From the NCBI GenBank assembly GCA_964395115.1, contig CAYMZX010000007.1, forward strand, positions 1-54,495: a stretch of 54,495 nucleotides of DNA, given 5' to 3'. Under the pieces are notes generated by a model that was not told the origin of the DNA, made no database searches, and was given only the letters and a program-made list of their open reading frames with translations. Each line of letters opens with the position of its first letter. The first letter of the stretch is position 1. Both the position numbers and the translations under genes were made by a program. Source of the DNA: an uncultured Gammaproteobacteria bacterium. GTDB taxonomy: Bacteria > Patescibacteriota > Microgenomatia > UBA8517. Below, one piece after another: positions 2,392 to 41,762 of this stretch.

Positions 2392-2396
2392 AACCA

Positions 2397-3008: not shown

Positions 3009-3018
3009 AATTGCTTTT

Positions 3019-3104
3019 GGAGTCAAGAAACAATGGGCAAAAAGTCGCTAATGCTGGCTTCTTCAATCCTTAATTAAGGACGCCCTTTTTGTTTCTTAAG
3101 CTCC
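3019..3104 (+). promoter_or_regulatory. Structured RNA element upstream of rny
   Basis: Nested pairings GGAG/CTCC, AAGAAACAA/TTGTTTCTT and GGGC/GCCC enclose two hairpins, one being the palindrome TCCTTAATTAAGGA. Confidence 0.5.
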
Positions 3105-3133
3105 CACTTATTTATTTGTTTATTTGCGGTTAG

Positions 3134-4381
3134 ATGACCACATCAGACGACATCAAGGCAATAGTTAAAGATCTGAGGAGACAGAGGGAGGCTTTGGAGA
3201 GAAAAGAAGCCCTTCTGAAAACTCGTGAAGAAGAATTGATCTCTCGGTTAGAAAAAGTGGCCGGGATCAATAGAGAAGAAGCGAAAAAAATTCTTCTTGA
3301 AGAAATCCAGAAAGACCTTACGGCAGAAATAGCTAAAAAGATTAGGAATGCCGAGGAAAGAATCAAAGAGGAAGCGAGCCAGAAAGCTAGAGAAATTCTA
3401 GCCGATGCGATGAAACACGGGGCGACTACTTATACGGCAGAATATACAGTTTCTTCAGTAACCGTTCCAAATGAAGATGTCAAGGGGAGAATCATTGGTG
3501 CCGGCGGAAGAAACATAAGAACATTTGAGAGGGAAACGGGGGTTGAAATAGAAATCGACGAAGGAAATGAAATTAGGCTTTCTTCTTTTGATGCCATAAG
3601 GAGGGAAATTGCCAAAAGAAGTCTTAAGCGGCTTATCAAAGATACCAGGATCCAGCCCTCAAGAATCGAAGAGGTGGTTAAACAAGTCAAGGGAGAAATC
3701 GAAGATGTTCTTTTAGAGGAGGGAAGAAGAATTACCCAAGAATGTGGAGTCTACAATCTCCCCCTCGAACTTATTAAATTAATCGGCCGTTACAAATTTA
3801 GGACATCTTATGGCCAGAACTTGGGTCTGCATACAATAGAGGAAACAAAAATTGGAGTTGCTATTGCTAATGAACTCGGGGCTAATGTGGACATTGTTCG
3901 CCTAGGGTGTCTCCTTCACGATATTGGCAAGGTGGTTACGGATGAAGAGGGAACTCACATAGAGGTTGGAGTTAACACTCTTAAACGATTTTCGCTTCCC
4001 AAGGAGGTAATTGCCTGTGTTGCTGAGCATCACGAAGATAAGCCTTTCTCTTCGACCGAATCGGTAATTGTCTGGACGGCTGATGCTATTTCCGGTTCTC
4101 GACCCGGGGCCCGATATGAACCCCATGAAGAGTATGTTAAGAGAATGAGTAAGATCGAGGAGATTGCCGCCTCGTTTCCGGGAGTAGAATCAGTTGTGGC
4201 ATTTCAAGCCGGCCGAGATGTCAGGGTAATTGTCAACCCAGAAGAAGTTGATGACGAGGCAATAACTGTTTTAGCTCATGATATTGCCAAGAGGCTGGAG
4301 AAAGAAACAGAGTATGCCGGACAGATAAAAGTAACAGTAATTAGGGAAATTCGAGCCAGCGAGTCGACTGTTGCTAAGTAA
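3134..4381 (+). CDS. rny: Ribonuclease Y (KH + HD domains), no N-terminal TM anchor
   Basis: KGRIIGAGGRNIR (KH), RTSYGQN, LLHDIGK, ADAISGSRPGAR, IKVTVIRE. Confidence 0.95.
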   Translation: MTTSDDIKAIVKDLRRQREALERKEALLKTREEELISRLEKVAGINREEAKKILLEEIQKDLTAEIAKKIRNAEERIKEEASQKAREILADAMKHGATTYTAEYTVSSVTVPNEDVKGRIIGAGGRNIRTFERETGVEIEIDEGNEIRLSSFDAIRREIAKRSLKRLIKDTRIQPSRIEEVVKQVKGEIEDVLLEEGRRITQECGVYNLPLELIKLIGRYKFRTSYGQNLGLHTIEETKIGVAIANELGANVDIVRLGCLLHDIGKVVTDEEGTHIEVGVNTLKRFSLPKEVIACVAEHHEDKPFSSTESVIVWTADAISGSRPGARYEPHEEYVKRMSKIEEIAASFPGVESVVAFQAGRDVRVIVNPEEVDDEAITVLAHDIAKRLEKETEYAGQIKVTVIREIRASESTVAK

Positions 4382-9326: not shown

Positions 9327-9623
9327 CTCTGGAGGAAGGATGACCGGGCACCGACAACATATTTTGTTGCGGCCGTCAGGAAAGTCCAGGCAGCAGAAGG
9401 CAGGGTGGTCGCTGTAAAGCGGCACGCGAAAGCGCTAGTTAGAGCCACAGAGACGACAACTCATTTCGGACCAGATAGGTTCGGAAAAGAGAGTGAAAAG
9501 AGGCAATCCTCCCCGCTGCAACCTCCGACCGGGTCGTTACTAGGTCGCCTTCCCGAGACCCAAGGATAGAGGGCTTAGATAGATGGTCATCTGAAACAGA
9601 ACCTGGCTTACTAGCCTCCAGAG
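9327..9623 (+). ncRNA. rnpB: RNase P RNA
   Basis: P1 CTCTGGAGG/CCTCCAGAG, conserved AGGAAAGTCC and ACAGAACCTGGCTTA, AGAGCCACAGAGAC. Promoter TTGAAA-17-TATAAT at 9291-9319. Confidence 0.95.
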
Positions 9624-9627
9624 ATAT

Positions 9628-11122: not shown

Positions 11123-11208
11123 TTTCCTAATCTTTCCATAAATACTACCTTGACACAACTTTTTCAAGGTGCAACAATGTTTGAGCTCAAATATTACTCG
11201 GAAGTCGA

Positions 11209-28315: not shown

Positions 28316-28411
28316 AAAGATCCTCGGTGCTTGAAAAATTCAACCTCTCTCAGCCTCTTGACCACCATCTTTTTAGTTTAGCTTCCTTCTGTGGTAAAAT
28401 ACACCCATTAT

Positions 28412-28485
28412 TGCGGGGTCGTCTAACGGTAGGACGATGGACTCTGGATCCATTGATCTTGGTTCGAATCCAAGCCCCGCAGCCA
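28412..28485 (+). tRNA. tRNA-Gln(CTG)
   Basis: TGCGGGG/CCCCGCA acceptor stem, anticodon arm ATGGA-CTCTGGA-TCCAT, GGTTCGAATCC, encoded CCA. Confidence 0.97.
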
Positions 28486-28547
28486 ATTTGTAAAGTTTGC
28501 GCCCCCTTTTGGTTTAAGATAGCATAGTTTTGGTTTATAATAAAAAA

Positions 28548-28898
28548 GTGCTTTTAACATTTTATCTCTTGGTAATCGGTCATTTTATAGGGGATTTTAT
28601 GTTTCAGGGTTCTTTGGCAAGTAAAAAGAGAGGACTTAATAAATATATGCTTGCCCACGGAGCCATCATGGCTCTGGCTTTTTTCTTGCCCCTTATTAAT
28701 TATCCTTCCGGGAAAGTGGTTTTGGGGACGTTTATTCTTTTCCTGGGACATATAATGATTGACGCGGTAAGGTATGAGGTAAATAGGGTATTTAAAGTCA
28801 TTCCCGGAACATATACTTTTGCCCTTTCCTTGGGAATAGACCAGATTCTTCACATAAGCCTTATTTATCTCCTGTTTAATTTCCTGGTCGTAGGTTGA
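28548..28898 (+). CDS. DUF3307 family membrane protein
   Basis: GHFIGDFMFQ, H..ID and DQILH motifs; GTG 6 nt after TATAAT. Confidence 0.85.
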   Translation: MLLTFYLLVIGHFIGDFMFQGSLASKKRGLNKYMLAHGAIMALAFFLPLINYPSGKVVLGTFILFLGHIMIDAVRYEVNRVFKVIPGTYTFALSLGIDQILHISLIYLLFNFLVVG

Positions 28899-28911
28899 CC
28901 TATAGCCTCGC

Positions 28912-28994
28912 TTGAAATAGTCCTATAATTATTATATAATTCGGCCTCGCTCTTTTAAAACCCCGAAAGCAAAATCTCAAAAGGGAGGCTCGAA
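28912..28994 (+). promoter_or_regulatory. Promoter, boxA-like motif and SD (cassette leader)
   Basis: TTGAAA-17-TATAAT (28912-28940), GCTCTTTTAAAA (28949-28960), GGAGG (28984-28988). Confidence 0.7.
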
Positions 28995-29252
28995 ATGAAC
29001 AAGCGATGGTTGGGTTTGATTGTGGCAATGGCGTTCTTTCTTGGACTCCTGGCGGGCGGTCTTTTCTCGTCCCCCGGCCGGGCCTCGGCCACGGCGGACA
29101 ACTTGGTCTATGTGGCCGTGGACATCGATGGCGATGGTGCCAATGACTACGAGCTGACCATCGGCGAAGTCGTCAGCCAGTTCGAGACCCCCGAGGGCGA
29201 ACTCGGCATCTGGGTTAAGGGAGTAGTTCAACAACTCAGCCCTTTACCCTAA
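28995..29252 (+). CDS. Secreted hypothetical protein (85 aa; 0-frame product)
   Basis: SD-led ATG, signal peptide ending RASA, DIDGDG motif, visibly GC-rich. Confidence 0.75.
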   Translation: MNKRWLGLIVAMAFFLGLLAGGLFSSPGRASATADNLVYVAVDIDGDGANDYELTIGEVVSQFETPEGELGIWVKGVVQQLSPLP

Positions 29253-29614
29253 GTGCTGCTGGGTCTACAACGACTGCCACCGGTCCAGCAGCTACGGGCG
29301 ATCCGGTCTTTGTAAGGGTTTCGCACTACTGGCCGCCTTTGGGCGGGCCGAACTGCGCCAGCTTTATCGACGGAGAGTGTCGAAGTCGAATGGCTAGCGG
29401 CGAGCCTTGGCAGGACTGGGTGGAAAAAGCAATCGCCTGTCCGCCCGAGTGGGAATTCGGAACGCGCCTTGTAATTTCAGGGCGTGAATGGGTCTGCATG
29501 GACAGGGGAAGCGCCATCCAGATCGAAGATGGAATTGCTTGGATCGATATGCTGACCCCCAGAGCGTTGTTCGCTTATGGAAGCATCCTCGAAGCATCTT
29601 TGATAAGACCGTGA
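29246..29614 (+). CDS. 3D/DPBB-like domain in the -1 frame (probable frameshift fusion with the 28995 ORF)
   Basis: Frame open from 29219: TLSAAGSTTTATGPAATGDPVFVRVSHYWPPLGGPNC...MASG...ACPPEWEFGT...CMDRGSAI...WIDML. First start codon is the TTG at 29339, inside the domain. Confidence 0.65.
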   Translation, partial: TLSAAGSTTTATGPAATGDPVFVRVSHYWPPLGGPNCASFIDGECRSRMASGEPWQDWVEKAIACPPEWEFGTRLVISGREWVCMDRGSAIQIEDGIAWIDMLTPRALFAYGSILEASLIRP

Positions 29615-29634
29615 ATAACTTTCGGGGTTTGTTT

Positions 29635-29690
29635 GCCGGGGGCGAAATATCTGTTCTCGAAAGAGAAAAGAAAACCGCCCCCGGCTTCTC
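29635..29690. terminator. Long GC hairpin between convergent cassette genes
   Basis: GCCGGGGGCG/CGCCCCCGGC enclosing TTCTC-GAAA-GAGAA. Confidence 0.6.
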
Positions 29691-29719
29691 GTTACTTTAG
29701 ATTGTCTTTCCTTACACCT

Positions 29720-29929
29720 TCATGCTTTCAGCAAGATGGTTTTTTTGGGAACATTCTGCCTAGTCCTGATCGGAACCCCCTCGACTCTCTTGGGCAAGTA
29801 ACGAGGTTTGGAACAGATATAGCAACATTTTGGCTTTGTCTCAAATTCTACAATGAAATTAACTATCGCATTCTTGATAGCCACACAAAGCTTTGTACCA
29901 TTGCCAATCGGATAAAGCTTGCTAGGCAT
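29720..29929 (-). CDS. Small hypothetical protein (69 aa)
   Basis: Promoter TTGAAA-17-TATACT (29971-29999), GGAGG SD at 29935-29939, ATG start. Confidence 0.5.
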   Translation of the reverse strand: MPSKLYPIGNGTKLCVAIKNAIVNFIVEFETKPKCCYICSKPRYLPKRVEGVPIRTRQNVPKKTILLKA

Positions 29930-30018
29930 TTTCCCCTCCGGCTAGTAAGATGTAAGGTGCAAGAGAGCATAGTATAGAGATTTTGGTCTGTCCTTTCAAG
30001 GAGATATAATGAAAAAAG

Positions 30019-31212
30019 ATGCGAAGAATACTGGTCATTCTTATATTTGTCTTGGGAATTGTCGGCGTCGGTTTGTATTTTACAGGCAAATATCTTATTT
30101 GGCAGGTTAGCCCCAGAGAGCTGATTACCCGATTTACTGCCCCACAGAAAGATATCAGGCAATTTCTTCCTCAGGGCAGAGAGATGAGCTATCCCCTTAA
30201 TTTACCAAAAGGATTCGGAATTGCAACTTTCGCCGATCTTAAAGGCGGTCTTCCCAGAGCTCTGGCTTTCGATCCTTACGGAGTTTTATTTGCTTCGATT
30301 CCGAATAAAGGAAAAGTGGTGGCTCTTCCCGATAAAGAGAACGACGGGGCGGCGGACAAAATAATCGACGTCGTTACCGGACTCGATTATCCTCATGGAA
30401 TAGCTTTTACGGGTGACAAACTTTACATTGCGGAGACAGACAAGGTTATTAGATATTCATACGACCCCGCCAGCCTAAAGGTGACAAATAAAGAGATTCT
30501 CTTCAATCTTCCGGCCGGCGGCAGGCACAAGACCAGGACCTTAAGAATCTGGGGAGATAAACTTTACACTTCGGTTGGTTCATCCTGTGATGTCTGTATC
30601 GAACAAAATCCCTATCGAGCCTCTATTTTAATATCGGATTTGGATGGAGAGAATTTGAGAGTTTTTGCCAAGGGACTTAGAAATACGGTATTTTTTACCT
30701 TCGACAACCAGGGAAGAATATGGGGAACGGAGATGGGAAGAGATTATTTAGGCGACACTTTGCCTCCGGACGAAATCAATTTAATCGAAGAGGGAAAAGA
30801 TTACGGATGGCCGTATTGTTACGCCCAGAAAGTTAGAGATTTCAAATTTAAGCCGGGAGAGAAGCTTTCATATTGTCCGGATACCGTTGCTTCAAAATTT
30901 GATCTGCCTGCCCATGTGGCGCCGTTGGGAATTACTTTCATTAACTCTTCACTCTTTCCTCCCGAAGATCAAGGCAATTTATTAGTGGCTCTTCATGGTT
31001 CTTGGAATTCGTCAACGCCGGTCGGCTATAAAATTGTCAAGCTTTCGGTTTTTGCCGACGATATTGTCGGAATGTCTGATTTTATAACTGGATTTTTGCT
31101 CGACGGAAAAGAGGTTTTAGGGAGACCGGTGGATCTTATCTTTGACAAAAGCGGACATCTTTTTATTTCGGATGATAAAGCGGGTCTGATTTATATTCTT
31201 TTCAAGGATTAA
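30019..31212 (+). CDS. PQQ-dependent sugar/sorbosone dehydrogenase family beta-propeller
   Basis: SVGSSCDVC, AKGLRN, PPDEIN..GKDYGWPYC, HVAPLG, HGSWN, GRPVD, SDD. Confidence 0.9.
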   Translation: MRRILVILIFVLGIVGVGLYFTGKYLIWQVSPRELITRFTAPQKDIRQFLPQGREMSYPLNLPKGFGIATFADLKGGLPRALAFDPYGVLFASIPNKGKVVALPDKENDGAADKIIDVVTGLDYPHGIAFTGDKLYIAETDKVIRYSYDPASLKVTNKEILFNLPAGGRHKTRTLRIWGDKLYTSVGSSCDVCIEQNPYRASILISDLDGENLRVFAKGLRNTVFFTFDNQGRIWGTEMGRDYLGDTLPPDEINLIEEGKDYGWPYCYAQKVRDFKFKPGEKLSYCPDTVASKFDLPAHVAPLGITFINSSLFPPEDQGNLLVALHGSWNSSTPVGYKIVKLSVFADDIVGMSDFITGFLLDGKEVLGRPVDLIFDKSGHLFISDDKAGLIYILFKD

Positions 31213-31214
31213 TT

Positions 31215-31586
31215 TTAGAACAAGGAGAGTATTTTAGGGCCGAAAAGAAACACTCCAATTATTACGGACAAGAAAGCGGAAACAAAGACGGCCGCGGCCG
31301 AAATATCCTTGGCGATTTTTGCTTTCTCGTTTACTTCGGGACTGACGATATCAACAAGAACTTCGAGAGAGGTATTGATAAGCTCAAGAATAAGAACAAA
31401 GGCAATTGTGAAGAGAAGAATTATCCATTCGACGGGTCTGAATTTCAAAAGTATAGCCAAAATAATCGCCGAAACAGCAATCATCAGGTGGATTCGAACA
31501 TTAGGTTCATTTTTAATTGCGGTTTTGATTCCCGAAAAAGCGCAACCGAAGCTAGTTATGGTTGAATGGGCTTTACTCATAGCCAT
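31215..31586 (-). CDS. dgkA: Undecaprenol/diacylglycerol kinase
   Basis: EPNVRIH, LELINTSLE..VD, AKIAKDISAAAV. The true start may be ATG 31580. Confidence 0.9.
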   Translation of the reverse strand: MAMSKAHSTITSFGCAFSGIKTAIKNEPNVRIHLMIAVSAIILAILLKFRPVEWIILLFTIAFVLILELINTSLEVLVDIVSPEVNEKAKIAKDISAAAVFVSAFLSVIIGVFLFGPKILSLF

Positions 31587-31658
31587 ATTAGTATAGCTTT
31601 CTTAATTTGTGATAGCAAAATATGTTAGGATTAAAATCATAAGGAAAACCGACAACAA

Positions 31659-32120
31659 ATGGGCAATTCAATCATTATTTTCTTGGCTAGTTTTTTGATT
31701 TGGATTATGTTTGCGGGGCTTTTCGTTCTTTGGATAGTGGATGGGAAAATAAAAAGAGAAGAGGTTATCCACGCCCTTTTGGCAGCCGGTTTAGCCTGGT
31801 CCATCGCCCAGATTATTAAGGCTCTTTTTCCAACAGTAAGACCATTCATAACAGATGGAACAACTCCAATGGTCTTATTACCAGCGACGGACGGCGCCTT
31901 CCCTTCGGGTCATAGTGCTGCCGCCTTTGCTTTGGCAACCTCAATTTTTCTCCATGACAAAAAAGTGGGAATTTTTTATCAATTTGCCGCCCTAATCATT
32001 GGAATTGCCCGAATTTTGGGTAACGTCCATTACCCGATTGATATCTTGGGAGGGGCATTGCTCGGGGTTATGGTTGCTTTCATCACTAAAAGAATTCACC
32101 TTAGCAAACTTGTTCCGTGA
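31659..32120 (+). CDS. PAP2 family phosphatase (undecaprenyl-PP phosphatase-like)
   Basis: K......RP, FPSGH and ARILGNVHYPID motifs. Confidence 0.9.
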   Translation: MGNSIIIFLASFLIWIMFAGLFVLWIVDGKIKREEVIHALLAAGLAWSIAQIIKALFPTVRPFITDGTTPMVLLPATDGAFPSGHSAAAFALATSIFLHDKKVGIFYQFAALIIGIARILGNVHYPIDILGGALLGVMVAFITKRIHLSKLVP

Positions 32121-32182
32121 CCTCCCGTATTTTCAAGGTTGACTATTAGCAAACAAAATGATAGACTGCTAAAAATTCTCAA

Positions 32183-34603
32183 ATGAAATCGAATATCAAA
32201 TTGCAAAGAAACGTTCCGATTGTAGCGGTGAGGGGGTCTGTGGTTTTTCCTCACACCGATACGCTTCTTTCTTTCGGTCGGCCAAAGTCGGTTTCGGCCA
32301 TAAATTCTGCTTTTCAGGAAGATAGAGTAATTGCCATCTTTACCCAAAAAGATCCGAGGACCACGGACCCCCGGGAAGAAGATCTCTATAAAACGGGAAC
32401 AATCGCTACCATTACTCAAATGATGTCAACCGAGGGGGAAATACATGCTTTAGTCCGCGGTCAGGCACGGGTAAATCTTGAAGAAATCATTTCTAATGAA
32501 CCTTTTTTACTGGGCCAAATTTCCGAGCTTTCGGAGGAAATTGAGGATACTCCCGCTATTAAAGCATTGGCCAGCCAGCTTTCGGATCTGTTCAAAAAAG
32601 CGATAAACGCCGGTAAATCCGCTGAAATAATGACCGTTATGAAATTGATCTCTGGTCAAGTGGAACCGGTTGAATTAGTAGACCAGATTGCCTCTCTTCT
32701 GGAAATAAAAGTCAGCGAGAAACAAAAACTTCTAGAGACGCTGTCGGTTAAGAAAAGGATGGAAAAAGTTTTGGAATTTTTGGCCCAAGAAGTAAATGTT
32801 CTAGAACTAGAAAGAACAATTTCAGTAAAAACACAGAAAAGGTTTGAGGATCAAATGAGAAAGGCTATGCTTCGAGAGAAGAAAAGGACTATTGAAGAAG
32901 AGTTGGGGGAGGGGGAAGGAGAACTTGATGCCGATGAATTTGCCGAATACAAAGCCAAAATTAAAAAGGCGAAGATGCCCCTCGAAGTTAGAGAAAAGGC
33001 GGAGAGGGAACTTAAAAGACTTACTCAGATGTCTCCTCACAATCCGGAAGGGGCCTATATTCGAAACTATCTCGATTGGTTGGTTGATATGCCGTGGAGT
33101 ATTACCACCCCCAATAATGTATCCATAAAAAAAGCCGCCGACATTTTAGCGGAAAAGCACTACGGTATGGAGAAGGCTAAAGAGAGAATATTAGAATTTC
33201 TGGCGGTAATGAAAATAAAGGGAGAGGTTAAAAACAAAAAGGCCGGTAAAAACGGGGAAAACCAACCGACCATTCTCTGTTTTATCGGTCCCCCGGGAGT
33301 TGGAAAAACATCGATCGGCCGCTCGATCGCCGAATCATTAAATCGAAAATTTGTTAGGGTGTCTTTGGGAGGAATTCGTGATGAAGCAGAAATTCGGGGA
33401 CACCGACGAACGTACGTCGGCGCCCTTCCCGGAAGAATTATTCAAGGAATCAAAAACGCGGGTACCAAAAATCCTGTTTTTATGCTCGATGAAATAGATA
33501 AAATAGGAGTCGATTTCAGGGGAGACCCGTCAAGCGCACTTCTTGAAGCTTTGGATCCCGAACAAAATCGGGAATTCTCCGATCACTATCTGGAAGTTCC
33601 TTTTGATTTGTCCGAGGTGATGTTTATTTGCACCGGCAATATTCTCGACACCATCCCGCCGGCTTTAAAAGACAGAATGGAGATTATTAGATTCCCCGGC
33701 TATACTGAAGAAGAAAAATTCCATATTGCCAAAGATTTCCTTTGGCCAAAGCAAATAAAACTTCACGCTTTGGAGAACAAAAAGATTTCTTTGCAGGAGG
33801 CGGCAATAAGGGAAATTATAAATCGTTATACCCGAGAAGCAGGAGTTAGAGAATTGGAAAGAAACTTGGCCACGGTTTGCCGAAAAATTGCTAGGTTAGT
33901 GGCCGAAAAGAAAAGATTCCCCAGAGTAATTAAGATCAGCGATATTCACAAATTCTTGGGGCCCCAGAAATTCTCTTCGTTGATAGCCGAGAAAAAAGAC
34001 GAGGTAGGAATGGCGACTGGGCTGGCGGTTACACCGACGGGGGGAGAAATTCTTTTCATAGAGGTTGCCCTTATGCCGGGGAAAGGAAAGCTGACGCTTA
34101 CCGGTCAACTGGGAGAAGTGATGCAGGAATCAGCCAAAGCGGCTTTTACTTGGGCTAAGGCCCATTACAATGAATTGGGAATTAAGCCTGATTTTGCTAT
34201 GGGAATCGATGTTCATGTTCATGTGCCGGAAGGAGCGGTTCCTAAAGACGGTCCTTCGGCCGGAATAGCAATTGCTTCGGCTTTGGTTTCCGCGTTGACA
34301 GGAATTCCGGTAAAAAGAAATATTGGGATGACCGGAGAAATCACTCTTAGAGGAAGAGTACTTGAAATCGGAGGAGTTAAGGAAAAAATCATTGCCGGTC
34401 ATCGGGCAGGCCTCAAAACCATAATTCTTCCTAAAGACAACAAAAAAGACTTGGAAGATGTTCCCGCTAATGTCAAAAAGGACATTAAATTTATTTTTGT
34501 AGACGATCTGAAAGAAGTTTTGAAGGTGGCTATCAAATCTTGGCCTCCCAAAACTGCTTCATCAAAAAGAATCCTTCCTTCCTCATTCTTGGCGGCAAAC
34601 TAA
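32183..34603 (+). CDS. lon: Lon protease
   Basis: GPPGVGKTS, RGHRRTYVGALPG, PKDGPSAG, IGGVKEK. Confidence 0.98.
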   Translation: MKSNIKLQRNVPIVAVRGSVVFPHTDTLLSFGRPKSVSAINSAFQEDRVIAIFTQKDPRTTDPREEDLYKTGTIATITQMMSTEGEIHALVRGQARVNLEEIISNEPFLLGQISELSEEIEDTPAIKALASQLSDLFKKAINAGKSAEIMTVMKLISGQVEPVELVDQIASLLEIKVSEKQKLLETLSVKKRMEKVLEFLAQEVNVLELERTISVKTQKRFEDQMRKAMLREKKRTIEEELGEGEGELDADEFAEYKAKIKKAKMPLEVREKAERELKRLTQMSPHNPEGAYIRNYLDWLVDMPWSITTPNNVSIKKAADILAEKHYGMEKAKERILEFLAVMKIKGEVKNKKAGKNGENQPTILCFIGPPGVGKTSIGRSIAESLNRKFVRVSLGGIRDEAEIRGHRRTYVGALPGRIIQGIKNAGTKNPVFMLDEIDKIGVDFRGDPSSALLEALDPEQNREFSDHYLEVPFDLSEVMFICTGNILDTIPPALKDRMEIIRFPGYTEEEKFHIAKDFLWPKQIKLHALENKKISLQEAAIREIINRYTREAGVRELERNLATVCRKIARLVAEKKRFPRVIKISDIHKFLGPQKFSSLIAEKKDEVGMATGLAVTPTGGEILFIEVALMPGKGKLTLTGQLGEVMQESAKAAFTWAKAHYNELGIKPDFAMGIDVHVHVPEGAVPKDGPSAGIAIASALVSALTGIPVKRNIGMTGEITLRGRVLEIGGVKEKIIAGHRAGLKTIILPKDNKKDLEDVPANVKKDIKFIFVDDLKEVLKVAIKSWPPKTASSKRILPSSFLAAN

Positions 34604-34627
34604 ACTTTTTAAAAATTTCTCGTCTCC

Positions 34628-36103
34628 CTATGACAAACTATTTGGTATTATTTCGGCAATTTTTTGGAGAGTTGAGAGATTTCTTGTTCCCAATTTTTGC
34701 ATTCCTTGTTTGACTGCCGCGATTAATTTGTGAATAAAAATATAACCGGAACCTTTGTAGCCAACTTTTGTTACTTTTCCTTCCGGAACTTTAATTTCCA
34801 TTTTTTCAATGCCGTATCGAAAAGCGCCTCTTTTTTCCATTGCTTCCAATGAACCCATGCCCCGATATTTTTTCACCAGATATCCCTTTTCTTCGTCAAA
34901 CTCTGCCTCACCGGGAGATTCTTCTAAACCTGCCAGCAATCCTCCCATCATTACCGTTTCTGCCCCTAAGGCGAGTGCCTTGATGATGTCTGACGGCTTT
35001 CGGATACCTCCATCGGCGATTATGGGAATTTTAAATCCGGATTTTTTTGCCAGCTTTTTTGCTGCTTGACTACAGTCCCAAACCGCCGACCCTTGGGCCC
35101 GACCGATACCTAAATATTCTTGGGTGATGCAGGCGGCTCCTGGCCCAATTCCTACCCGCAGACCATCGACAATTGAATTGGCGTTTTTCATTACTTCCTC
35201 TACCATTTTTCCCGAATCGACATTGCCTAAAATAACTTCCAATCTAGGAAAGTGTTTTTTGGCAAATCTGGCGATCTCCAATTGTTCTTTAAAAACGACG
35301 GAAGCGTCAAGAACTATGCCGTCGGCTCCAGCCTCCACCGCCCTTTTTATTCTTTCCTTGGCCAGCACCAGCCGAGATTCGACGGCAACCAAAACCTTGA
35401 GTTGCTTGTTTTCATCTTTGGTGGCCAAAGGATAGGTCTCATTTTTTCGCAAGTCGCTGTCGGTTACTAAAGCCACGATGCGAAAATTTTTATCAACTAT
35501 TGGCAGAGTATCAAGGTTGTACTTTCTGATGATTTTATTAGCGGCGCGAATGTCGTTTTTGTCCAATGTCTTTTCCTTGGGAGCGGTTATTAATTTTTCG
35601 CGCGGAGTCATAATTTTAGAAAGAGGAATTTTCATTTCCTTCTTGGTCTCTAAATACCTGACATCTCGATGAGTAATAATTCCTACAAGTTTGGAATTTA
35701 TGGTGCCGTCTTCCGTAATCGGGACAGAATAAAAACCAAACTTTTGGGCTATTTGATAGACATCCTCAACTTTGTTTTTTGGACTTAAAACTACCGGTTT
35801 CTTGACAAAAGCGGCTTCAAATCGTTTCACTTTTTCCACCTCTTCCATTTGCTCGTCTATTGTTTCGTAGTTATAGTGAATGACCCCAATTGCACCCATC
35901 AGAGCCATCATAATTGCCATTTGAGAGCCGGTGACCGTATCCATTGGGGAGCTTACAAAAGGAGTTTTGAGGGTTATGTTTCGGGAGAGTTTTGTAGTTA
36001 AGTCCACCTCGTCCCGCTCAAAATCGGGCAAGCGGTTACAAACCAAGAGAATATCTCGGTACCAAAATTCTTTATTGCGTAAGTCCCGATGAAGTTTGGC
36101 CAT
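34628..36103 (-). CDS. guaB: IMP dehydrogenase with CBS pair
   Basis: SSPMDTVT, RVGIGPGAACIT, IIADGGI, YRGMGS. Confidence 0.95.
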   Translation of the reverse strand: MAKLHRDLRNKEFWYRDILLVCNRLPDFERDEVDLTTKLSRNITLKTPFVSSPMDTVTGSQMAIMMALMGAIGVIHYNYETIDEQMEEVEKVKRFEAAFVKKPVVLSPKNKVEDVYQIAQKFGFYSVPITEDGTINSKLVGIITHRDVRYLETKKEMKIPLSKIMTPREKLITAPKEKTLDKNDIRAANKIIRKYNLDTLPIVDKNFRIVALVTDSDLRKNETYPLATKDENKQLKVLVAVESRLVLAKERIKRAVEAGADGIVLDASVVFKEQLEIARFAKKHFPRLEVILGNVDSGKMVEEVMKNANSIVDGLRVGIGPGAACITQEYLGIGRAQGSAVWDCSQAAKKLAKKSGFKIPIIADGGIRKPSDIIKALALGAETVMMGGLLAGLEESPGEAEFDEEKGYLVKKYRGMGSLEAMEKRGAFRYGIEKMEIKVPEGKVTKVGYKGSGYIFIHKLIAAVKQGMQKLGTRNLSTLQKIAEIIPNSLS

Positions 36104-36117
36104 TTTAAATAATTAAA

Positions 36118-37059
36118 CTAAATATATTCGATAGTTGCCGGCGGTTTTGGTGTCAACTCATATAAAACTCTTGCCACTGAAGGAATTTCGGCGGTGATTT
36201 TTTCCTGAACTTTTTCTAATACTTTCCAAGGAATTTTCGTTGCCCGAGCTTTGATCGCGTCGCTAGAATCAACCGATCGAATGACGATTATATCCCCGAA
36301 AATTCTTTTTCCTTTTTTGACCCCAGTGGCTTTATCAGAGAGAAGTACAGCAAAAACTTGAAAGGGGAAAAACTTATTCAATTCTCTTTCCACAATTGCC
36401 GTTGCCCGGCGAACGATTTTAATCTTCTCGGGTGTTACTTCGCCAATAACTCTAATGGCCAATCCCGGTCCTGGAAAAGGCATTCGTTGGTAAACCTCTT
36501 TTGGTAAACCCAAAGCCTTCGCAATTTGGCGAACCTCCGGTTTGTATAAAGTCTTTAGAGGTTCAATTACTTGGAATCCGTATTTTTGAGGATTAATTCC
36601 TATCTGCCCCAAAACATTATGCTGGGTCTTTATTCTTCCAACCGTCTCTACGACATCCGCCTTGATGGTTCCTTGAATTAAAAATTGTGCCTCTTGCTTT
36701 TTGATTGTTTCCCCCAATACTTTGTAGAACACTTCCCGAAAAACTCTTCTTTTTTCTTCCGGGTCGGTAATTTTCTTGAGAGCCTGAAAAAATCGTTGCT
36801 GAACGCGGACTATTTTGGTTTTAATCGCAAACTTTTTAAGTAATGAGATCACCTTTTCCGGTTCGTTTTCTCGCATTAAGCCGTCATCAATGAAAACCGC
36901 TGAAAACTGCTTGCCGAGAGCCCTTTGAGCCAAAACGGCGCAGACGGTGCTGTCGACTCCGCCAGAACAAGCGGCGACTGCTTTTTGGCCAGTGACTACC
37001 TTTTTAATTTCGTCTATTCGACTTTTAATAAACTTTTGCTTGTCGAAATTCTTCTTCAT
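36118..37059 (-). CDS. guaA: GMP synthase, ATP-pyrophosphatase subunit only
   Basis: SGGVDS, DPEEKR, IKTQHNV, PFPGPGLAIR, KPPATIEY; no glutaminase domain. ATG 37059 follows TAGAAT. Confidence 0.9.
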   Translation of the reverse strand: MKKNFDKQKFIKSRIDEIKKVVTGQKAVAACSGGVDSTVCAVLAQRALGKQFSAVFIDDGLMRENEPEKVISLLKKFAIKTKIVRVQQRFFQALKKITDPEEKRRVFREVFYKVLGETIKKQEAQFLIQGTIKADVVETVGRIKTQHNVLGQIGINPQKYGFQVIEPLKTLYKPEVRQIAKALGLPKEVYQRMPFPGPGLAIRVIGEVTPEKIKIVRRATAIVERELNKFFPFQVFAVLLSDKATGVKKGKRIFGDIIVIRSVDSSDAIKARATKIPWKVLEKVQEKITAEIPSVARVLYELTPKPPATIEYI

Positions 37060-37118
37060 CTCTTTCGCCAATTCTATAGGCAGTAAATTAGGAAGTAAAG
37101 ATAGGCCTCAATTTCCGC

Positions 37119-37161
37119 AAAAAAGGGCACGTTCCGTGGTATCACTACCAAGTTCGTGCCC
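37119..37161 (-). terminator. Long hairpin terminator after the LCP gene
   Basis: GGGCACG/CGTGCCC stem with inner TGGTA/TACCA helix; A-tract on + gives a U-tract on -. Confidence 0.7.
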
Positions 37162-37181
37162 CCGGCACTTTTCCCACCAAG

Positions 37182-38225
37182 TTACTTTTTGAAGATCTCC
37201 GTCAGCAACGTCTGAACCCCTTCTTTATCCGGCAGAAGTACTGCTCCACCGTCCGGAGTTGTCCAACTCCTTGTTAGTCCGGCAAGAGTAAAACCTTCAA
37301 TTCTAGTTGGATCTTGAGCTACTTGGGCCGCCGTGGGCAAAAGTGCTAGCATGTCAGTAAGATCCATATCCGTTTCTACCATTCGGGAGTACTGTTCGTA
37401 GAACTCTGGCAGACGAGTTAGCCCTTCAAGCGAGATGGCTTTGCGGAAGATCGCCAAGAGAATCTCTTGGGCCCGTCGTTGTCTGGCAAAGTCTCCCCCC
37501 GGCGCATTTCTCATTCGCACGTAGCAGAGTGCCGTCCAGCCGTCCATGTGGTATGATCGGCCGGACTGATACGAATAAGAAGTTTTCCCGCAGGAATCGG
37601 TGAAACCGTTGCCCACTACAACATCGATCCCCCCCAAAGCATCAACCGCTTTTTCGAAAGAGGCGAAATTGACTCGGGCATAATAGTCAACTTCAATTCC
37701 GAAGTTATAGCGCAAGGTTAGAGCGACAAGCTCCGGACCTCCATACGCGTAAGCGGTATTGATGCGAGCCATATTTCGGCCCGGTAGGTAGACAAAGAGA
37801 TCTCTGGGAAACGAGATCATCTTTACAGTACCTTGCTCCGGATCGATGGAGATTAAGACCATCGTGTCGGCGTTCATACTCCTACGCCACCAGGCATCGT
37901 CTGTTCCCAGAATAATTATATTGACCGTTTCCTTCGGGGATACGATATCCCGAATGATTCTGGGAATCTCGGTTGAGGATTTTAAGCTGGGACCCGGAAA
38001 ATTTTCCCACGGCTCAACCGGAGTCGGGGTAGGAGTTGGGGTCATCGAAGGAGCCGGAGTCGGGGTGGCCGATAAGGTTGGCAGAATCGGCAGAAATGGC
38101 GTAGCCATTGCGGTTGGCGAAGTTGGGACGGGTGTTATTGTGCTTGGCAAGGATCCTTCGCGCGTTCCACACGAGGCGAGCACAATCGCCAGGGTGGAAA
38201 CAGCAAGCAAGTGCGCCTTGAACAT
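37182..38225 (-). CDS. LCP (LytR-CpsA-Psr) family lipoprotein
   Basis: SD-led ATG 38225 (MFKAHLL), lipobox LASC, PT-rich linker, LGTD, ADTM, SFPRDL, YVRMR, DFARQRRAQ. Confidence 0.92.
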   Translation of the reverse strand: MFKAHLLAVSTLAIVLASCGTREGSLPSTITPVPTSPTAMATPFLPILPTLSATPTPAPSMTPTPTPTPVEPWENFPGPSLKSSTEIPRIIRDIVSPKETVNIIILGTDDAWWRRSMNADTMVLISIDPEQGTVKMISFPRDLFVYLPGRNMARINTAYAYGGPELVALTLRYNFGIEVDYYARVNFASFEKAVDALGGIDVVVGNGFTDSCGKTSYSYQSGRSYHMDGWTALCYVRMRNAPGGDFARQRRAQEILLAIFRKAISLEGLTRLPEFYEQYSRMVETDMDLTDMLALLPTAAQVAQDPTRIEGFTLAGLTRSWTTPDGGAVLLPDKEGVQTLLTEIFKK

Positions 38226-38230
38226 TCCTT

Positions 38231-38284
38231 TCCTCCTTAAGAGATTGTTCTTGATGGGTTTGTTAAAGTGCTTTAGTAATTTTA
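38231..38284 (-). promoter_or_regulatory. -10 box, boxA-like motif and SD (cassette leader)
   Basis: TAAAAT (38279-38284), GCACTTTAACAA (38260-38271), AAGGAGGA (38231-38238). Confidence 0.65.
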
Positions 38285-38307
38285 ATACATGGTGCAAATA
38301 TTTCCAC

Positions 38308-38348
38308 AAAAAAAGGGCACACCCTTGACTTACGTTAGGTATGTGCCC
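38308..38348 (-). terminator. Long hairpin terminator
   Basis: GGGCACA/TGTGCCC stem plus A-tract; same design as 37119-37161. Confidence 0.7.
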
Positions 38349-38395
38349 CGCACCATGTTGGAATTCCCATCCGGTCAGATCTCCCCGGTTTCCTC

Positions 38396-38890
38396 CTAAA
38401 ACAAAGTCTGATTTCGGCATGCATGGATGGCAACCAGAATCAGTGTACAGATTGCAAACACGGTAACCACCTTTTTCCTTAGCTTGACCTCCGGCGTGTC
38501 CGGGATTTTCAGGGGGCGGATTGCTTCCCGTTCCTCCTTGCTATAGTGCTTGTATTCGTCCCAGTGAATCATCCGTCCGGACAGGTCTCGCCGAGGCTCC
38601 AACATTAACAGACCGAGACAACCCCCGAATTGGAGCGTAAATCCCAAGATCGCACCCATGATGGGATTTCGGCCCTTGGCCATAGCAACATGTGCGCCAA
38701 GGAATGTCCAGGCGCCGAGATAGATCGCAAAACAGCTCAGTCCTGCAATCCGCCGTGCCAGACACAGACCCGAAAGTCCTGCCATAGGATCGTTTTCGCT
38801 ACACCCCGCCCTAGCACTTGCCAAAAAGATCCAGAACCAGACGACCGCATAGAGCATAATCGCAATGGAGTAGAGCCATTTTTTCTTCAT
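38396..38890 (-). CDS. Hypothetical membrane protein (164 aa)
   Basis: SD AGGAGG before ATG 38890; about four TM segments; boxA-like GTACTTTGACAA at 38923-38934. Confidence 0.75.
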   Translation of the reverse strand: MKKKWLYSIAIMLYAVVWFWIFLASARAGCSENDPMAGLSGLCLARRIAGLSCFAIYLGAWTFLGAHVAMAKGRNPIMGAILGFTLQFGGCLGLLMLEPRRDLSGRMIHWDEYKHYSKEEREAIRPLKIPDTPEVKLRKKVVTVFAICTLILVAIHACRNQTLF

Positions 38891-39209
38891 CTCGTCCTCC
38901 TCGTGGCGAATAAGTGACTGGATTGTCAAAGTACTTTAGCCGTCTCAATAGGAAAGAAGATGGAAGCTATATATTCACCATTCCTACTAAGGCGGATTAC
39001 AAAAAAATGTCCAAACTCTTGGGCAAGTACTTAGATTATACTCTCCTGCAGTCTTTTTCTCAAAAATATTTGAGCCAGCTTCTTTTAGATAAATAACAAC
39101 ATGTATTTTGAATCATGTTTTCTTTGACAAATAGTGCTATAATAGCCCATCTTTTCGCACATTCACAATTTCCGGAATACACACCCTAAACCCTAAAGGA
39201 GGGATTACA

Positions 39210-39608
39210 ATGAATATAATAACCTTGGAGTTTTGGCTCGACTTCGATAGTAAAGACCGAGCAGTATTGCTGAAGGTAGGAAACCTAGTAATTTCAAAGG
39301 TTGAGCAGGAAGTTCCAGGGTTTCTAATCCTGAACCAACGAATCCTGATGCCCTCGGATGCGCCCGTGGTTGTCTGGCAAATGGACGTAGATGTCAGACA
39401 AGCAGACGGGATTCGAAAATCCCTGCCCTACTGGTTCCGTTACTACGCCAACGAGGCTGGGGTTCTACCGGAGGAGTCCAAAGAGCTTCTGAAACAAGAG
39501 AACGCAGCTCGTTCGGGCAAGGGAGCCCCACCTTCTCTTGGGAAAAGGATGATTGCTATCCCCAATATCCCGGCGAAGAAGAAAAAGTGGTGGGAATTCT
39601 GGAAGTGA
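39210..39608 (+). CDS. Hypothetical protein with C-terminal KKKKWWEFWK tail
   Basis: Extended -10 TGCTATAAT (39135-39143), GCACATTCACAA (39157-39168), AAGGAGG SD, then hairpin/T-tract at 39614-39671. Confidence 0.8.
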   Translation: MNIITLEFWLDFDSKDRAVLLKVGNLVISKVEQEVPGFLILNQRILMPSDAPVVVWQMDVDVRQADGIRKSLPYWFRYYANEAGVLPEESKELLKQENAARSGKGAPPSLGKRMIAIPNIPAKKKKWWEFWK

Positions 39609-39831
39609 GGCGATAGGGTTGCGATGCGGATAAACCGCTGAGACATCGAATGGTGCGCAACCTAGTTTTTTAATTTTTTGGCTTGTGACCGACGATTAGG
39701 TTATTCCAAGATTTAGTTTGTTCGAATTTGTAGAATTTATTTGACTTCTACCCCATAATTACCTAAACTCCAAGCTGGCGAGAGGATTGCTCATTAACAA
39801 TTTTGTTCAATTTCACCCTAGGAGGTGTGAA

Positions 39832-40338
39832 ATGACTCAAACCTGCTGGTTCTGCAAGGAAAATTCCGAAGATCCGACAAAGGCCACCAAGATTCCGCTC
39901 TATAAGATAACGGACATGGAAAAGGAATATTTGTGGAGAGGGTCGATTAAGCAGCTGCCGTACGCGATCAAAACAGCCTACCGTTATCTTACAGCCAAAG
40001 TAGTTGTTCCCCGTTGCAACAAGTGTGCCCGGGACCAGGCAGAAGAGCGTGCAGTTGAATACGTCGCAGGCATTCTGGGGCTAACTGGGATTGTGGCCCT
40101 AATCGTCTTGGTCTTTGTTGCATAGCCGGCCAATATCAAGATAGTAGTCACTATTGTTTGTGGATTGTCCACCGTCGTGCTTCTGTATACCTTCGTCAAG
40201 GCACCCAAATATTTCCTGCGAGGAATAATGCAAGAAGGTTAAAAAAGCACACACCCTGAGGTGACAAGCTTGATGAGAACCGGTTATCGCATTGGCGTAA
40301 GTCCTGCGGATCCGCATCGTAGTAGGTCCATTAGATAG
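39832..40338 (+). pseudogene. Zn-finger membrane protein with two in-frame stops
   Basis: SD-led ATG 39832, two CxxC motifs. The frame continues after TAG 40123 (second TM helix) and TAA 40240 (HPEV..L..GY.IG) to TAG 40336, just before the terminator. Confidence 0.6.
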
Positions 40339-40343
40339 TTACC

Positions 40344-40403
40344 CCCCGCATTTTTGCGTTTGACTAGAAGTTCTAGTTGACCAAAGGTGCGGGGTATTTT
40401 TTT
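40344..40403 (+). terminator. Long hairpin terminator
   Basis: CCCCGCA/TGCGGGG with inner GACTAGAA/TTCTAGTT helix and a T7 tract. Confidence 0.7.
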
Positions 40404-40467
40404 GTCAAAATTTCAAATATTTTTTGTTTAGTGCTGTGAAGTTCTTTTGTCCGAAACAAGCTGTTTT

Positions 40468-41304
40468 CTATCCTGATATCTCGGTGTTTCCTTGGAAGCA
40501 ATAGGAGGGAGGATAGTCGCTAGGTTTCAAGCCACTGGCCACGGTTTCCAGTTTATAACCTTGATTCAAAAGGTGGTCCACAATTCTGGACGCATAGAAG
40601 GCATCATAAAAACGGTGGTTATGACTTAAAACTATATCCCCGGCCTGTACATGACCAGAAATGTTTTGAAGGGTGTTTTCATCTATACCTCCAGAGCACA
40701 ACGACCAGAGAACATGTTGAAGTCCGTACTCGGCAAAAATTCTTCTTACTCTTTCGTTACTGTCCCCAAATGGGGCCCTAAAATATTTAACCTGATAGCC
40801 AGGGATTATTTCTCCAATAATTTTAAACCACTCCTCGATGTCTCTTCTTATTTGATCGGAGCTATAAGTAGTGAGGGGATCGTGTATTAATCCGTGACAT
40901 CCTAAAACATGGCCTTCGGTTACAATTCTCTCTATTTCTGAAGAGTAGTTTCTGAGAGAGATATTACCTCTTTGGTAGCCTCCGGGAAGAAAAAAAGTGG
41001 CCTTCGCCTCCAATCCCAAATAGGCGTCCAAAATTGTGTTGAACCTCTCACGATTTCCCATGTCGTCGTAAGTCATTAAAACTATATTTCTAGAGGCATC
41101 ACATCTTCTCACTTCATGATTGACCAAAAATTCTATTATTTCTGGAGTAATATTCTCGGGATTCGTTATCTCCCCATCTTGTCGCTGTTTTTTTACCCCG
41201 TCGTTCAAAATGTCAACCTTATTCCCAAACATAACGGTTCCTGCTGAGAAAGCAACAACTCCGAAAAAGCCTCTACGGCTAAGAGTATTTTTCTTTTCTA
41301 TCAT
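40468..41304 (-). CDS. Polysaccharide deacetylase (CE4) with twin-arginine-like N-terminus
   Basis: TYDD, ATFF, HGLIH, FRAPFG, IVLSH; SRRGFF at the N-terminus. Confidence 0.9.
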   Translation of the reverse strand: MIEKKNTLSRRGFFGVVAFSAGTVMFGNKVDILNDGVKKQRQDGEITNPENITPEIIEFLVNHEVRRCDASRNIVLMTYDDMGNRERFNTILDAYLGLEAKATFFLPGGYQRGNISLRNYSSEIERIVTEGHVLGCHGLIHDPLTTYSSDQIRRDIEEWFKIIGEIIPGYQVKYFRAPFGDSNERVRRIFAEYGLQHVLWSLCSGGIDENTLQNISGHVQAGDIVLSHNHRFYDAFYASRIVDHLLNQGYKLETVASGLKPSDYPPSYCFQGNTEISG

Positions 41305-41392
41305 GACCTATAATGCCTGGCGAACTAGAATATCACTTTTGTGTTGGTAAGTCCACTAACTTGGAATCGTTTCCCCCGGGGGAGCAGTATAA

Positions 41393-41513
41393 GGAACGAA
41401 ACGCAGTGAAGTGACCCCACTGGGACTCGTGTGCACAAATTTCTTCCATACTTGGCACTATCGAGGAACAGTGTGGGGAACGAAACGCAGTGAAGTGACC
41501 CCACTGGGACTCG
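41393..41513. repeat. 37-bp direct repeat duplicating the tRNA-Glu 3' end
   Basis: GGAACGAAACGCAGTGAAGTGACCCCACTGGGACTCG at 41393-41429 and 41477-41513. Confidence 0.9.
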
Positions 41514-41568
41514 AACCCAGGTTTCTAGGATGAGAACCTAGTGTCCTAGACCGCTAGACGATGGGGCC
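41496..41568 (-). tRNA. tRNA-Glu(CTC)
   Basis: GGCCCCA/TGGGGTC acceptor stem, CTAGG-TTCTCAT-CCTAG anticodon arm, GGTTCGAGTCC; CCA not encoded. Confidence 0.96.
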
Positions 41569-41762
41569 TCGTAAAACTCGGCGAGCCCTTCGGCTATCGT
41601 ATAACTTTCTGTTTCAGGCTCTATTTTACCTTGAAAAAGCCAAAAATGCCAACTTTTTTTCTTGACAAAGCAACTACCGAAGATTAGAATTTCTTTCGTA
41701 GAAGATTATAATTTCCCTCCACAAAATTGAAAGCGGAGGGGTATTTTTTTAGTTTTCCTGAT

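Follow-up and report, generated by a model that had tools for sequence, protein, structure and literature searches.

The boxA of ribosomal RNA (rRNA) transcripts is the NusB–NusE site that seeds the ribosomal antitermination complex. Outside rRNA, to our knowledge, boxA has so far been shown in a handful of gamma-proteobacterial genes, in CRISPR arrays and in lambdoid phages. Among accessory genes, toxin–antitoxin pairs are mobile, and phage morons are autonomous promoter–gene–terminator units of deviant composition, while the RfaH/ops and LoaP systems depend on a paralogue of NusG and on a signal of another kind. Here we describe the whole of contig C7 (54,495 bp, hereafter the window) of the patescibacterial genome G000 (648 kb in 18 contigs, 97% complete, ≈42% guanine-cytosine (GC) content), in which five or six single-gene cassettes, designated A and C to G, carry a boxA-like 12-mer in their leaders. 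Our best reading of these sequences is that boxA belongs to the cassettes and would recruit the Nus factors of the host, the motifs of cassettes D and E being the candidate sites.

For mRNAs, the accessible part of Baniulyte et al. (2017, PMC5725501) places boxA at most 50 nucleotides (nt) from the translation starts of suhB, rpsJ, prsA and a ParE-like toxin gene in gamma-proteobacteria, reports that Nus-dependent repression from a boxA in the 5′ untranslated region works at spacings of up to 100 nt between boxA and the Shine-Dalgarno (SD) sequence and is followed by Rho termination, and counts 407 sites of the form GYTCTTTAANA at most 50 nt from start codons, in 314 of 940 gamma-proteobacterial genomes and with 0–7 per genome. 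In the rrn leaders of B. subtilis a small hairpin comes first and boxA directly after it, according to the accessible part of PMC13753749, which also states that boxA upstream of CRISPR arrays protects them from Rho.

Compared with the gamma-proteobacterial mRNAs, as far as the accessible text describes them, the cassettes are alike in that boxA lies 20–35 nt upstream of the SD of a single gene and in that targets are few (0–7 there, two strong ones here), one validated target there belonging to a toxin–antitoxin pair. They differ in occurring in Patescibacteria and Chloroflexota, in that the targets are mobile cassettes carrying the boxA and not Nus or translation genes, and in that the host hardly uses the SD and SuhB was not found in its genome; regulation is a prediction here. 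With rrn leaders and spacers the resemblance lies in the sequence, the D and E motifs being one base from the boxA of the genome's own 23S leader and within the range of the relatives' rRNA boxAs, and in the small hairpin that precedes the motif in E-type leaders, as in the relatives' 23S leaders. However, the cassettes are short, translated, SD-led accessory mRNAs for envelope proteins, whereas rRNA is long and untranslated, and CTGAAGAGAA, which follows boxA in the 23S leaders of the family, is absent from them. The CRISPR case is similar in having a Nus-type element on a non-rRNA, accessory and often horizontally acquired locus, but arrays are long and untranslated, cassettes short and translated.

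Like phage morons, the cassettes have their own promoter and terminator, one gene, deviant GC and often a membrane or secreted product; unlike morons, they are located on a cellular chromosome, among housekeeping genes and near tRNAs, viral contigs yielded no relatives of E, F or G, and a boxA leader is not in the definition of a moron. Identity with phage morons was rejected, since the cassettes are not within a phage or prophage and their flanks are housekeeping genes. An integron origin was rejected because each cassette has its own promoter and both strands are used (an integrase was not specifically searched for). In RfaH/ops and LoaP systems, too, a leader signal commits accessory envelope genes to a modified elongation complex (for LoaP, the accessible part of PMC12691694); the genome has a single match to the NusG family (PF02357) and no paralogue, and antitermination of this type was rejected. 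A literature search of limited scope gave nothing relevant on boxA in Patescibacteria, Chloroflexi or the Candidate Phyla Radiation (CPR) among the 10 of 2,002 papers listed. If our reading is true, what is new is the phyla, the boxA carried by mobile single-gene cassettes in a modular leader, and a genome that hardly uses the SD.

The region consists of five or six autonomous units, each with a sigma-70-type promoter of its own, followed by a short leader, a strong SD, one small open reading frame (ORF), mostly for a membrane or secreted protein, and a long hairpin terminator; transcription start sites and promoters are predictions from consensus scans. The five 12-mers and the weaker sixth listed in the initial annotation were recovered at the same coordinates and on the same strands, and a GGAGG-type SD, one ORF per unit and a long 3′ hairpin are present at every unit. 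A –10 box upstream of the motif was likewise found for A, C, D, F and G; the exception made for the unit at 38934 (cassette E) did not stand, as this unit also has a promoter, ≈95 nt upstream.

Cassette D (minus strand) starts with the promoter TGGAAA-16-TAAAAT (38279..38306; 9 of 12 consensus matches), followed by the boxA GCACTTTAACAA (38260..38271), which begins at about +2 to +4 of the predicted transcript, and by the SD AAGGAGG (38238-38232; 7-nt SD match). Its gene (37182..38225; GC content at third codon positions, GC3, 0.54) encodes a LytR-CpsA-Psr (LCP) family protein of 347 amino acids (aa; PF03816, E = 6e-39) whose N-terminus is by eye of the lipoprotein type, and ends in a long hairpin with a U run (37118..37163; –31.9 kcal/mol, z = –2.2). 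Cassette E, also on the minus strand, has the promoter TTGAGA-17-TATAAT (39063-39035; 11 of 12 matches), a 5′-terminal hairpin with its U run, an insertion of 66 nt (both within 38935..39063, from leader alignment and folding), the boxA GTACTTTGACAA (38923..38934), the SD GAGGAGG (38902-38896), a gene for a 164-aa membrane protein with no Pfam match (38396..38890; GC3 0.60) and a long hairpin terminator with a U run (38307..38349) that is kept in the E cassettes of other genomes. The leaders of D and E share CTAAAGYACTTTRACAA, as had been noted initially, and in the predicted fold of the D leader the motif is single-stranded.

As reference for boxA the genome's own 23S leader was taken, the contig ending inside the 16S gene so that the 16S leader is missing. 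The boxA reads GTACTTTAACAA and lies ≈60 nt upstream of the 23S gene, between tRNA and 23S, the spacer sequence after the tRNA being TTTGTACTTTAACAACTGAAGAGAA. A search with an 18-mer pattern and 3 mismatches gave match numbers no better than a reversed control, and only matches with at most 2 mismatches were used. Five of the 14 loci checked with Rfam are 23S leaders (our own and those of four further genomes of the family), and the same element is also found upstream of 23S or 16S in G180, G014, G441 and G442. In this lineage boxA varies as G-[TCGA]-[AT]-C-[TC]-TT-[AG]-A-[CAT]-A-[AT].

Against the genome's own 23S boxA, D and E each have one mismatch, while A has four and F and G three each (the last three counted by hand). 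A scoring matrix was built from 11 rRNA-leader boxAs, none from cassettes, and run over ≈1.3 million strand positions: the own 23S leader came first (19.0 bits), E second (18.1 bits) and D fourth (16.9 bits), with ranks 3 and 5–20 all in coding sequence. By this measure D and E match the rRNA boxA about as well as any non-rRNA site in the genome can. For A (7.7 bits), F (7.1 bits) and G (9.9 bits), 459, 609 and 136 positions, respectively, score as well or better, and for C (0.3 bits) far more. Since these four score like background, they are probably not boxA and only two of the six motifs are convincing; the identification of the 12-mer as boxA made in the initial annotation is thus kept for D and E and dropped for A, C, F and G. 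A further matrix match, at C6:49953, was rejected as a boxA leader, since the gene concerned, by eye lexA, has its promoter downstream of the match.

Comparison with other genomes indicates that the cassettes move horizontally with their own expression signals, within a pool common to Patescibacteria and Chloroflexota. Homologues of the E protein (48–71% identity) occur in records titled Woesebacteria, Patescibacteria, Anaerolineales, Anaerolineaceae and Chloroflexota, and all five E leaders aligned keep the same order, namely –10 box, 5′ hairpin with U run, G[CGT]AC[CT]TT(G)ACA[AT] and SD. At CPR-type loci the E gene is GC-richer than its surroundings (0.54–0.57 versus 0.47–0.48), while at the Anaerolineales locus it is not (0.54 versus 0.555), a pattern compatible with a pool of donors that are GC-richer and use the SD, though no proof of it. 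The 66-nt leader insertion is found only in the window copy of E (38935-39007 region, minus strand), where it folds into a long hairpin and accounts for the distance of ≈95 nt between promoter and motif. The bases just before the boxA of the window E (CTAAAG) resemble the D leader and not the other E leaders, which suggests that the D and E leaders recombined.

For D, relatives with 62–63% identity on metagenome contigs have the same leader, with GCACTTTAACAA in one (L079) and GCACTTTAAAAA in the other (L080), whereas those at 43–47% have a different, SD-less short leader. Among the latter LCP relatives (L082-L095) the SD-less promoter and the short leader, ending in GAGCACATTCATCCG before the ATG, are conserved; GAGCACATTCATCCG resembles the weak F motif GCACATTCACAA. 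For F, a protein with 80% identity is encoded in G180, a genome of the same family and a different genus, and nucleotide homology (77%) spans exactly 39130-39675, starting at the –10 box and stopping where the terminator stops, with none outside. Identity amounts to 48/53 positions in the leader, 304/392 in the coding sequence and 25/55 upstream of the –10 box, the F motif of G180 being GCGCATTCACAA; in contrast, a nearby IMP dehydrogenase (named by eye) is only 40–56% identical to G180 at the amino acid level.

That the leader is a module, and not the flank of one gene, is indicated by locus L016, where a tRNA is followed by two tandem cassettes having a near-same promoter, hairpin, GCACCTTGACAA, leader and SD, and similar terminators, ahead of unrelated ORFs, a 141-aa lipoprotein-like protein and an E homologue. 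Around the E, F and D homologues no synteny of other cassettes was seen, and a nucleotide search of 37100-40400 in 30 relatives gave no match outside G000. At E ≤ 1 Rfam returned no leader or terminator match in the window at 28400-41600 or in L016 at 2100-3600. As for position, cassette X of L016 starts within ≈10 nt of the 3′ end of the tRNA (2192-2264).

The architecture of promoter, boxA-like motif and SD recurs in relatives. A tight composite, GYWCYTTRACAA-N15-45-GGAGG-N3-12-ATG, was matched 21 times when 400 other genomes of the class were scanned, the matches being spread over 18 of them, and twice in G000, against 2 for the reversed control; the null expectation under independence is at most 8.3, an upper bound since suspected real sites were counted in it. 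Two of the 21 are members of the E family. A loose composite (GYWCHTTNAMAA, 15–45 nt, GGAGG, 3–12 nt, ATG) was found 70 times among the matches listed (68 distinct motif positions) in 56 of the 400 genomes, against ≈27 for the reversed pattern (hand counts). G000 has five, the maximum of any genome, and the five units are its only matches; as the loose pattern was derived from G000, this count is circular. When 30 of the loose-match loci were fetched, ≈13–15 had the motif outside long frames, with an ORF of 50 aa or more after it, and in ≈10 it was clearly inside a gene. In those plausible ones that were inspected, the motif follows the –10 box either directly or after a hairpin with a U run; small membrane or secreted proteins are the products of several, and the GC content of several exceeds that of their own locus. 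A related pattern gave 13 matches versus 0 for the control in five genomes, which were picked because they already had matches and are not an unbiased sample.

Two loci outside the window should be mentioned here as observations of their own. In a relative (L040, G424:C6, locus 1501-1518) an extended match to the 23S leader, TTTGTACTTTAACAAGTGAAGAG, including the bases after boxA, precedes an SD-led 370-aa ORF by 74 nt and is not adjacent to an rRNA gene; the mRNA is a strong candidate for regulation by boxA. In G000 itself, a GC-rich island between the rRNA genes (C12:18380-20819; GC3 0.59–0.69) begins with a gene having a perfect TTGACA-17-TATAAT promoter and a ≈165-nt leader with GCTCTTTAATAT (10.4 bits) and a long hairpin, possibly a further boxA-leader cassette.

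There is also a hint that the cassette boxA follows the rRNA boxA of its host. In G441, the genome holding the Anaerolineales E locus, the 16S leader reads GGACTTTAACAACTGAATAG and the 23S leader consists of a hairpin and then GGACCTTACAAACTGAATAG, its boxA being GGACCTTACAAA and the E-cassette motif GCACCTTACAAT. The E leader of this genome, GCACCTTACAATCC, has the unusual CCTTACAA form seen in the G441 23S leader; the form in other E leaders is CCTTGACAA. The E motif of G000 has changed to within one base of the host's 23S boxA, with which it shares a T at positions 2 and 5. By hand count, the nearest rRNA boxA was the host's own in three of four genomes, with one tie.

NusB (C14:17796-18050 region), NusA, Rho and NusG are encoded by the genome; nusB, rho and a 16S anti-SD, which the initial annotation had named as worth looking for, were all found. 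Given the likeness of D and E to the rRNA boxA, the conservation in orthologous cassettes, the recurring architecture and the presence of the factors, we predict both motifs to be genuine Nus sites, a prediction to which we attach an even chance. In the nascent D or E mRNA, boxA, at the 5′ end or close to it, would bind the NusB–NusE(S10) dimer of the host, and this, with NusG and NusA, would modify the transcribing polymerase. In one outcome, translation would be damped in a Nus-dependent manner and Rho termination would follow, for which suhB, the ParE-like toxin gene and lambda N are precedents; damping would serve as a host-independent governor on the strong promoter and strong SD of an envelope protein gene. 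In the other, the compositionally foreign transcript would be protected from Rho in the manner of rRNA or CRISPR arrays. Should the boxA be real, the former would be slightly favoured, since short, strongly SD-led envelope mRNAs behind good promoters incline us to a repressive outcome, and protection from Rho would fall a little short of an even chance.

A wider proposal is that portable, host-independent cassettes, made up of a sigma-70 promoter, in some cases a 5′ hairpin, an rRNA-type boxA, a strong SD, a gene for a small envelope protein and a long hairpin terminator, circulate between Chloroflexota and Patescibacteria, insert near tRNA genes and accept unrelated ORFs, their boxA drifting towards the rRNA boxA of each new host. 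We regard it as tentative and rather doubtful. If it were true, the cassette would exploit the conserved Nus machinery for expression, or safe throttling, in any recipient, and would work even in genomes that have otherwise abandoned SD-led initiation; cassette sharing could then mark physical pairing of host and episymbiont. Should the D and E leaders bind NusB–S10, two deeply branching phyla would be added to those with Nus-factor control, boxA would prove to be among the expression signals that a mobile gene takes along, and the expression or restraint of foreign genes in a reduced genome barely using the SD would be explained. The leaders also provide small, testable RNA–protein pairs (12–19-nt RNA with NusB–S10) for organisms that cannot be cultured and, as a sequence tag, allow gene flow between Chloroflexota and Patescibacteria to be traced.

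Several observations weigh against boxA in the cassettes being a Nus site. The SuhB family (Inositol_P, PF00459) was not found in the 97%-complete genome, and the need for antitermination is not obvious on short transcripts with strong SDs. Non-self sites with at most one mismatch from the 23S boxA number four, versus 4.1 expected in a second-order Markov simulation, although the placement of these four is unusual, three being intergenic and sense-upstream of a gene; at two mismatches, 65 sites versus 68.8 expected, both counts and placement are like background. D and E share a 17-mer and are therefore not two independent events; they possibly arose in one, such as leader recombination, and the in-genome statistic is then modest: one of the two top non-self matches falls in a leader. 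The motif contains a –35-like hexamer (TTGACA or TTAACA), and the E, D and F families keep the whole leader and not the 12-mer in particular, so that conservation does not single out boxA. The loose composite is weakly enriched, with 70 among the matches listed versus ≈53 expected under a null from G000 site frequencies. Finally, the E motif has two mismatches from the 16S-leader element GAACCTTAACAA in G180 and three from the 16S element in G442.

The alternative that survives best is a conserved leader element that is functional but independent of Nus, recognized by another RNA-binding protein, an RNase or a small RNA, or acting as an SD-controlling fold, the boxA likeness of a U/A-rich 12-mer being coincidental. 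It is consistent with whole leaders being kept, in D and E as well as in F, where the leader is better conserved than the coding sequence even though the motif, here and in G180, makes a poor boxA; with the pairing of the SD to CACCC just upstream in G and weakly in F; and with the lack of any fitting Rfam family, which leaves room for an undescribed element. What speaks for the Nus site instead are the second and fourth ranks of E and D on a matrix made of rRNA sites only, the unusual variant shared by the E and 23S leaders of G441, and the order of hairpin and motif, which parallels that of rRNA leaders (PMC13753749, accessible part). Moreover, leader folds are no more stable than those of shuffled sequences, and the candidate SD-sequestering hairpin through CACCC, although present in G, was rejected for having an energy like that of shuffles (z = –0.76). 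We consider this explanation unlikely.

Quite unlikely, in our estimate, is that only chance and shared ancestry are at work, the cassettes being recent imports from SD-using, GC-richer donors whose neutral 12-mers are boxA-like by accident and were picked after the fact. The background-like scores of A, C, F and G, the genome-wide near-match counts equal to expectation and a possible single duplication behind the D and E motifs all agree with it; patterns derived from these very sites give circular counts, and horizontal transfer accounts for the SD, the GC content and the hairpins without any boxA function. If the leaders did not bind, the cassettes would indeed be ordinary imports keeping donor-type SD, GC content and terminators. 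It is opposed by the excess of the tight composite over both its control and its null in the 400 other genomes, by a motif kept across phyla in the E family and across D homologues, and by the match of the cassette motif to the host's rRNA boxA variant in G000 and G441.

That the motif acts in the DNA, as a promoter element of the –35 type or as the operator of a transcription factor, is improbable. In favour of this reading, TTGACA, TTAACA or TTCACA lies inside every variant, some E leaders hold a TTGAC...GTCAA palindrome, the matrix match at 11161-11172, rejected as a boxA leader, is the –35 box of an ordinary promoter, and by eye one of the 21 tight matches has a good –10 box at 18 nt (in G383) and about two a weak one at 17 nt. 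Against it, by eye no acceptable –10 box is found 16–18 nt downstream of the hexamer in D, E and ≈18 of the 21, for which the –35 reading was rejected; the –10 boxes conserved in E (five of five leaders) and in D precede the motif; the palindrome is missing from L013, L014 and the window copy; and rRNA spacers that follow a tRNA hold the same motif, although a promoter would not be expected there.

The genome-wide setting bears on what had initially been made of these signals. Genes were called with a purpose-written caller (in-frame hexamer scoring and iterative choice of starts), which gave 682 genes covering 91% of the genome. No anti-SD match of at least 4 nt precedes 467 of the 682, compared with 72% of internal in-frame start codons, so that SD use is near background; matches of at least 6 nt precede only 35 genes, including by eye ribosomal-protein genes and rpoA, and the SD is therefore rare without being limited to foreign genes. 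Among 223 genes with a spacer of at least 60 nt, –10-like hexamers cluster 0–14 nt before the start codon (63 in three bins versus ≈10 per bin elsewhere). The genome fits a partly leaderless style, to which the leaderless style first ascribed to it should be restricted. The 3′ end of the 16S rRNA, GGATCACCTCCTTTCTAA, holds a complete canonical anti-SD.

GC3 amounts to 0.71 for A, 0.57 for B (the open frame following A), 0.47 for C, 0.54 for D, 0.60 for E, 0.56 for F and 0.57 for G, against a genome median of 0.395 (standard deviation 0.052), and reaches at least 0.50 in only 21 of the 682 called genes. This bears out the earlier remark that most of these ORFs are GC-richer than the core genes, with A, B and D to G at 0.54–0.71 and C lower. 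Their foreign appearance is borne out by the raised GC3 and, for E, by the homologues in Chloroflexota, and several encode envelope proteins. The absence of the signal pair from housekeeping genes holds for the composite, seen only on the five units, and not for the SD alone, found by eye on ribosomal-protein genes and rpoA. A dedicated expression programme of the host, as initially proposed, found no support, since the signals travel with the cassettes and the D, E and F leaders are conserved in other genomes, including Chloroflexota. The more speculative idea of transcripts formatted for the ribosomes of a partner cell likewise found none, given the canonical anti-SD and the strong SDs of some of the genome's own genes.

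Contigs from two public DNA runs with the label hot springs metagenome, X1 and X2, reproduce 28400-41600 nearly letter for letter, the sole difference within a cassette being two extra A after 28978, in an A-run of the cassette A leader. The genes flanking the cassettes encode Lon protease, IMP dehydrogenase and GMP synthase, by eye from their translations, and a polysaccharide deacetylase by Pfam. Predicted promoters end 7–20 nt upstream of the motifs in A, C, D and G (7–8 nt in D), and at the 3′ ends of the units long compound hairpins with a U run fold at –20 to –38 kcal/mol, with z down to –5.1.

Cassette A (plus strand) has the promoter TTGAAA-17-TATAAT (28912..28940; 11 of 12 matches), the weak boxA-like motif GCTCTTTTAAAA (28949..28960), the SD GGGAGG (28983-28988) and an ORF of 85 aa with a hydrophobic, signal-peptide-like N-terminus (28995-29252). 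It is followed in another frame by the open frame B (29255-29614, plus strand), within a coding region spanning 28995..29614; neither has a Pfam match. Frame B consists of a T/A/G-rich linker and then a Cys/Trp-rich domain. A and B are probably one secreted protein split by a frameshift, and the X1 and X2 contigs show no indel at the A/B junction. A long GC-rich hairpin (29635..29685; –35.6 kcal/mol, z = –3.7; none of 200 shuffles folds as well) separates A/B on the plus strand from C on the minus strand.

Cassette C (29720..29999, minus strand) comprises a promoter (29999-29971), the motif GCACCTTACAT (29960-29950), the SD GGAGGGG (29939-29933) and a 69-aa ORF (29929-29720) with no Pfam match.

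Cassette F (39135..39671, plus strand) begins with the extended –10 box TGCTATAAT (39135-39143; read by eye), followed by its weak motif (39157-39168), the SD AAAGGAGGG (39195-39203), a 132-aa ORF (39210-39608) and a hairpin terminator (39616-39671). Its leader shares CACCCTA with that of G, again as first reported.

Cassette G (39741..40394, plus strand) has a promoter at 39741-39769, the weak motif GCTCATTAACAA at 39789-39800, the SD AGGAGGTG inside a small hairpin at 39820-39827, a 97-aa ORF ending at TAG (39832-40125) and a long hairpin terminator at 40344-40394 (–37.6 kcal/mol, z = –5.1); apart from itself, no homologue was found. The frame stays open for 38 codons past the TAG (40123-40242), including a hydrophobic stretch, and the TAG is present in both X1 and X2. 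ORF G may be a pseudogene or be read through.

A tRNA-Gln (28412-28485) lies ≈0.5 kb before cassette A and a tRNA-Glu ≈1.2 kb beyond cassette G. A 49-nt direct repeat (41381-41429 and 41465-41513; 92% identity, spacing 84 nt) was found, whose second copy overlaps the 3′ end of the tRNA-Glu (41495-41568, minus strand) and which resembles the att-like duplication left by integration at a tRNA. Elsewhere in the window, at 9328-9626, a class A RNase P RNA was recognized with 107.9 bits (family cut-off 100), in a reduced form of 299 nt versus a 367-position model. On C12:11972-23260, outside the window, the 16S and 23S genes stand unlinked, ≈6 kb apart with protein-coding genes between them, and the 23S match spans 3811 nt versus a 2925-position model, pointing to large insertions.

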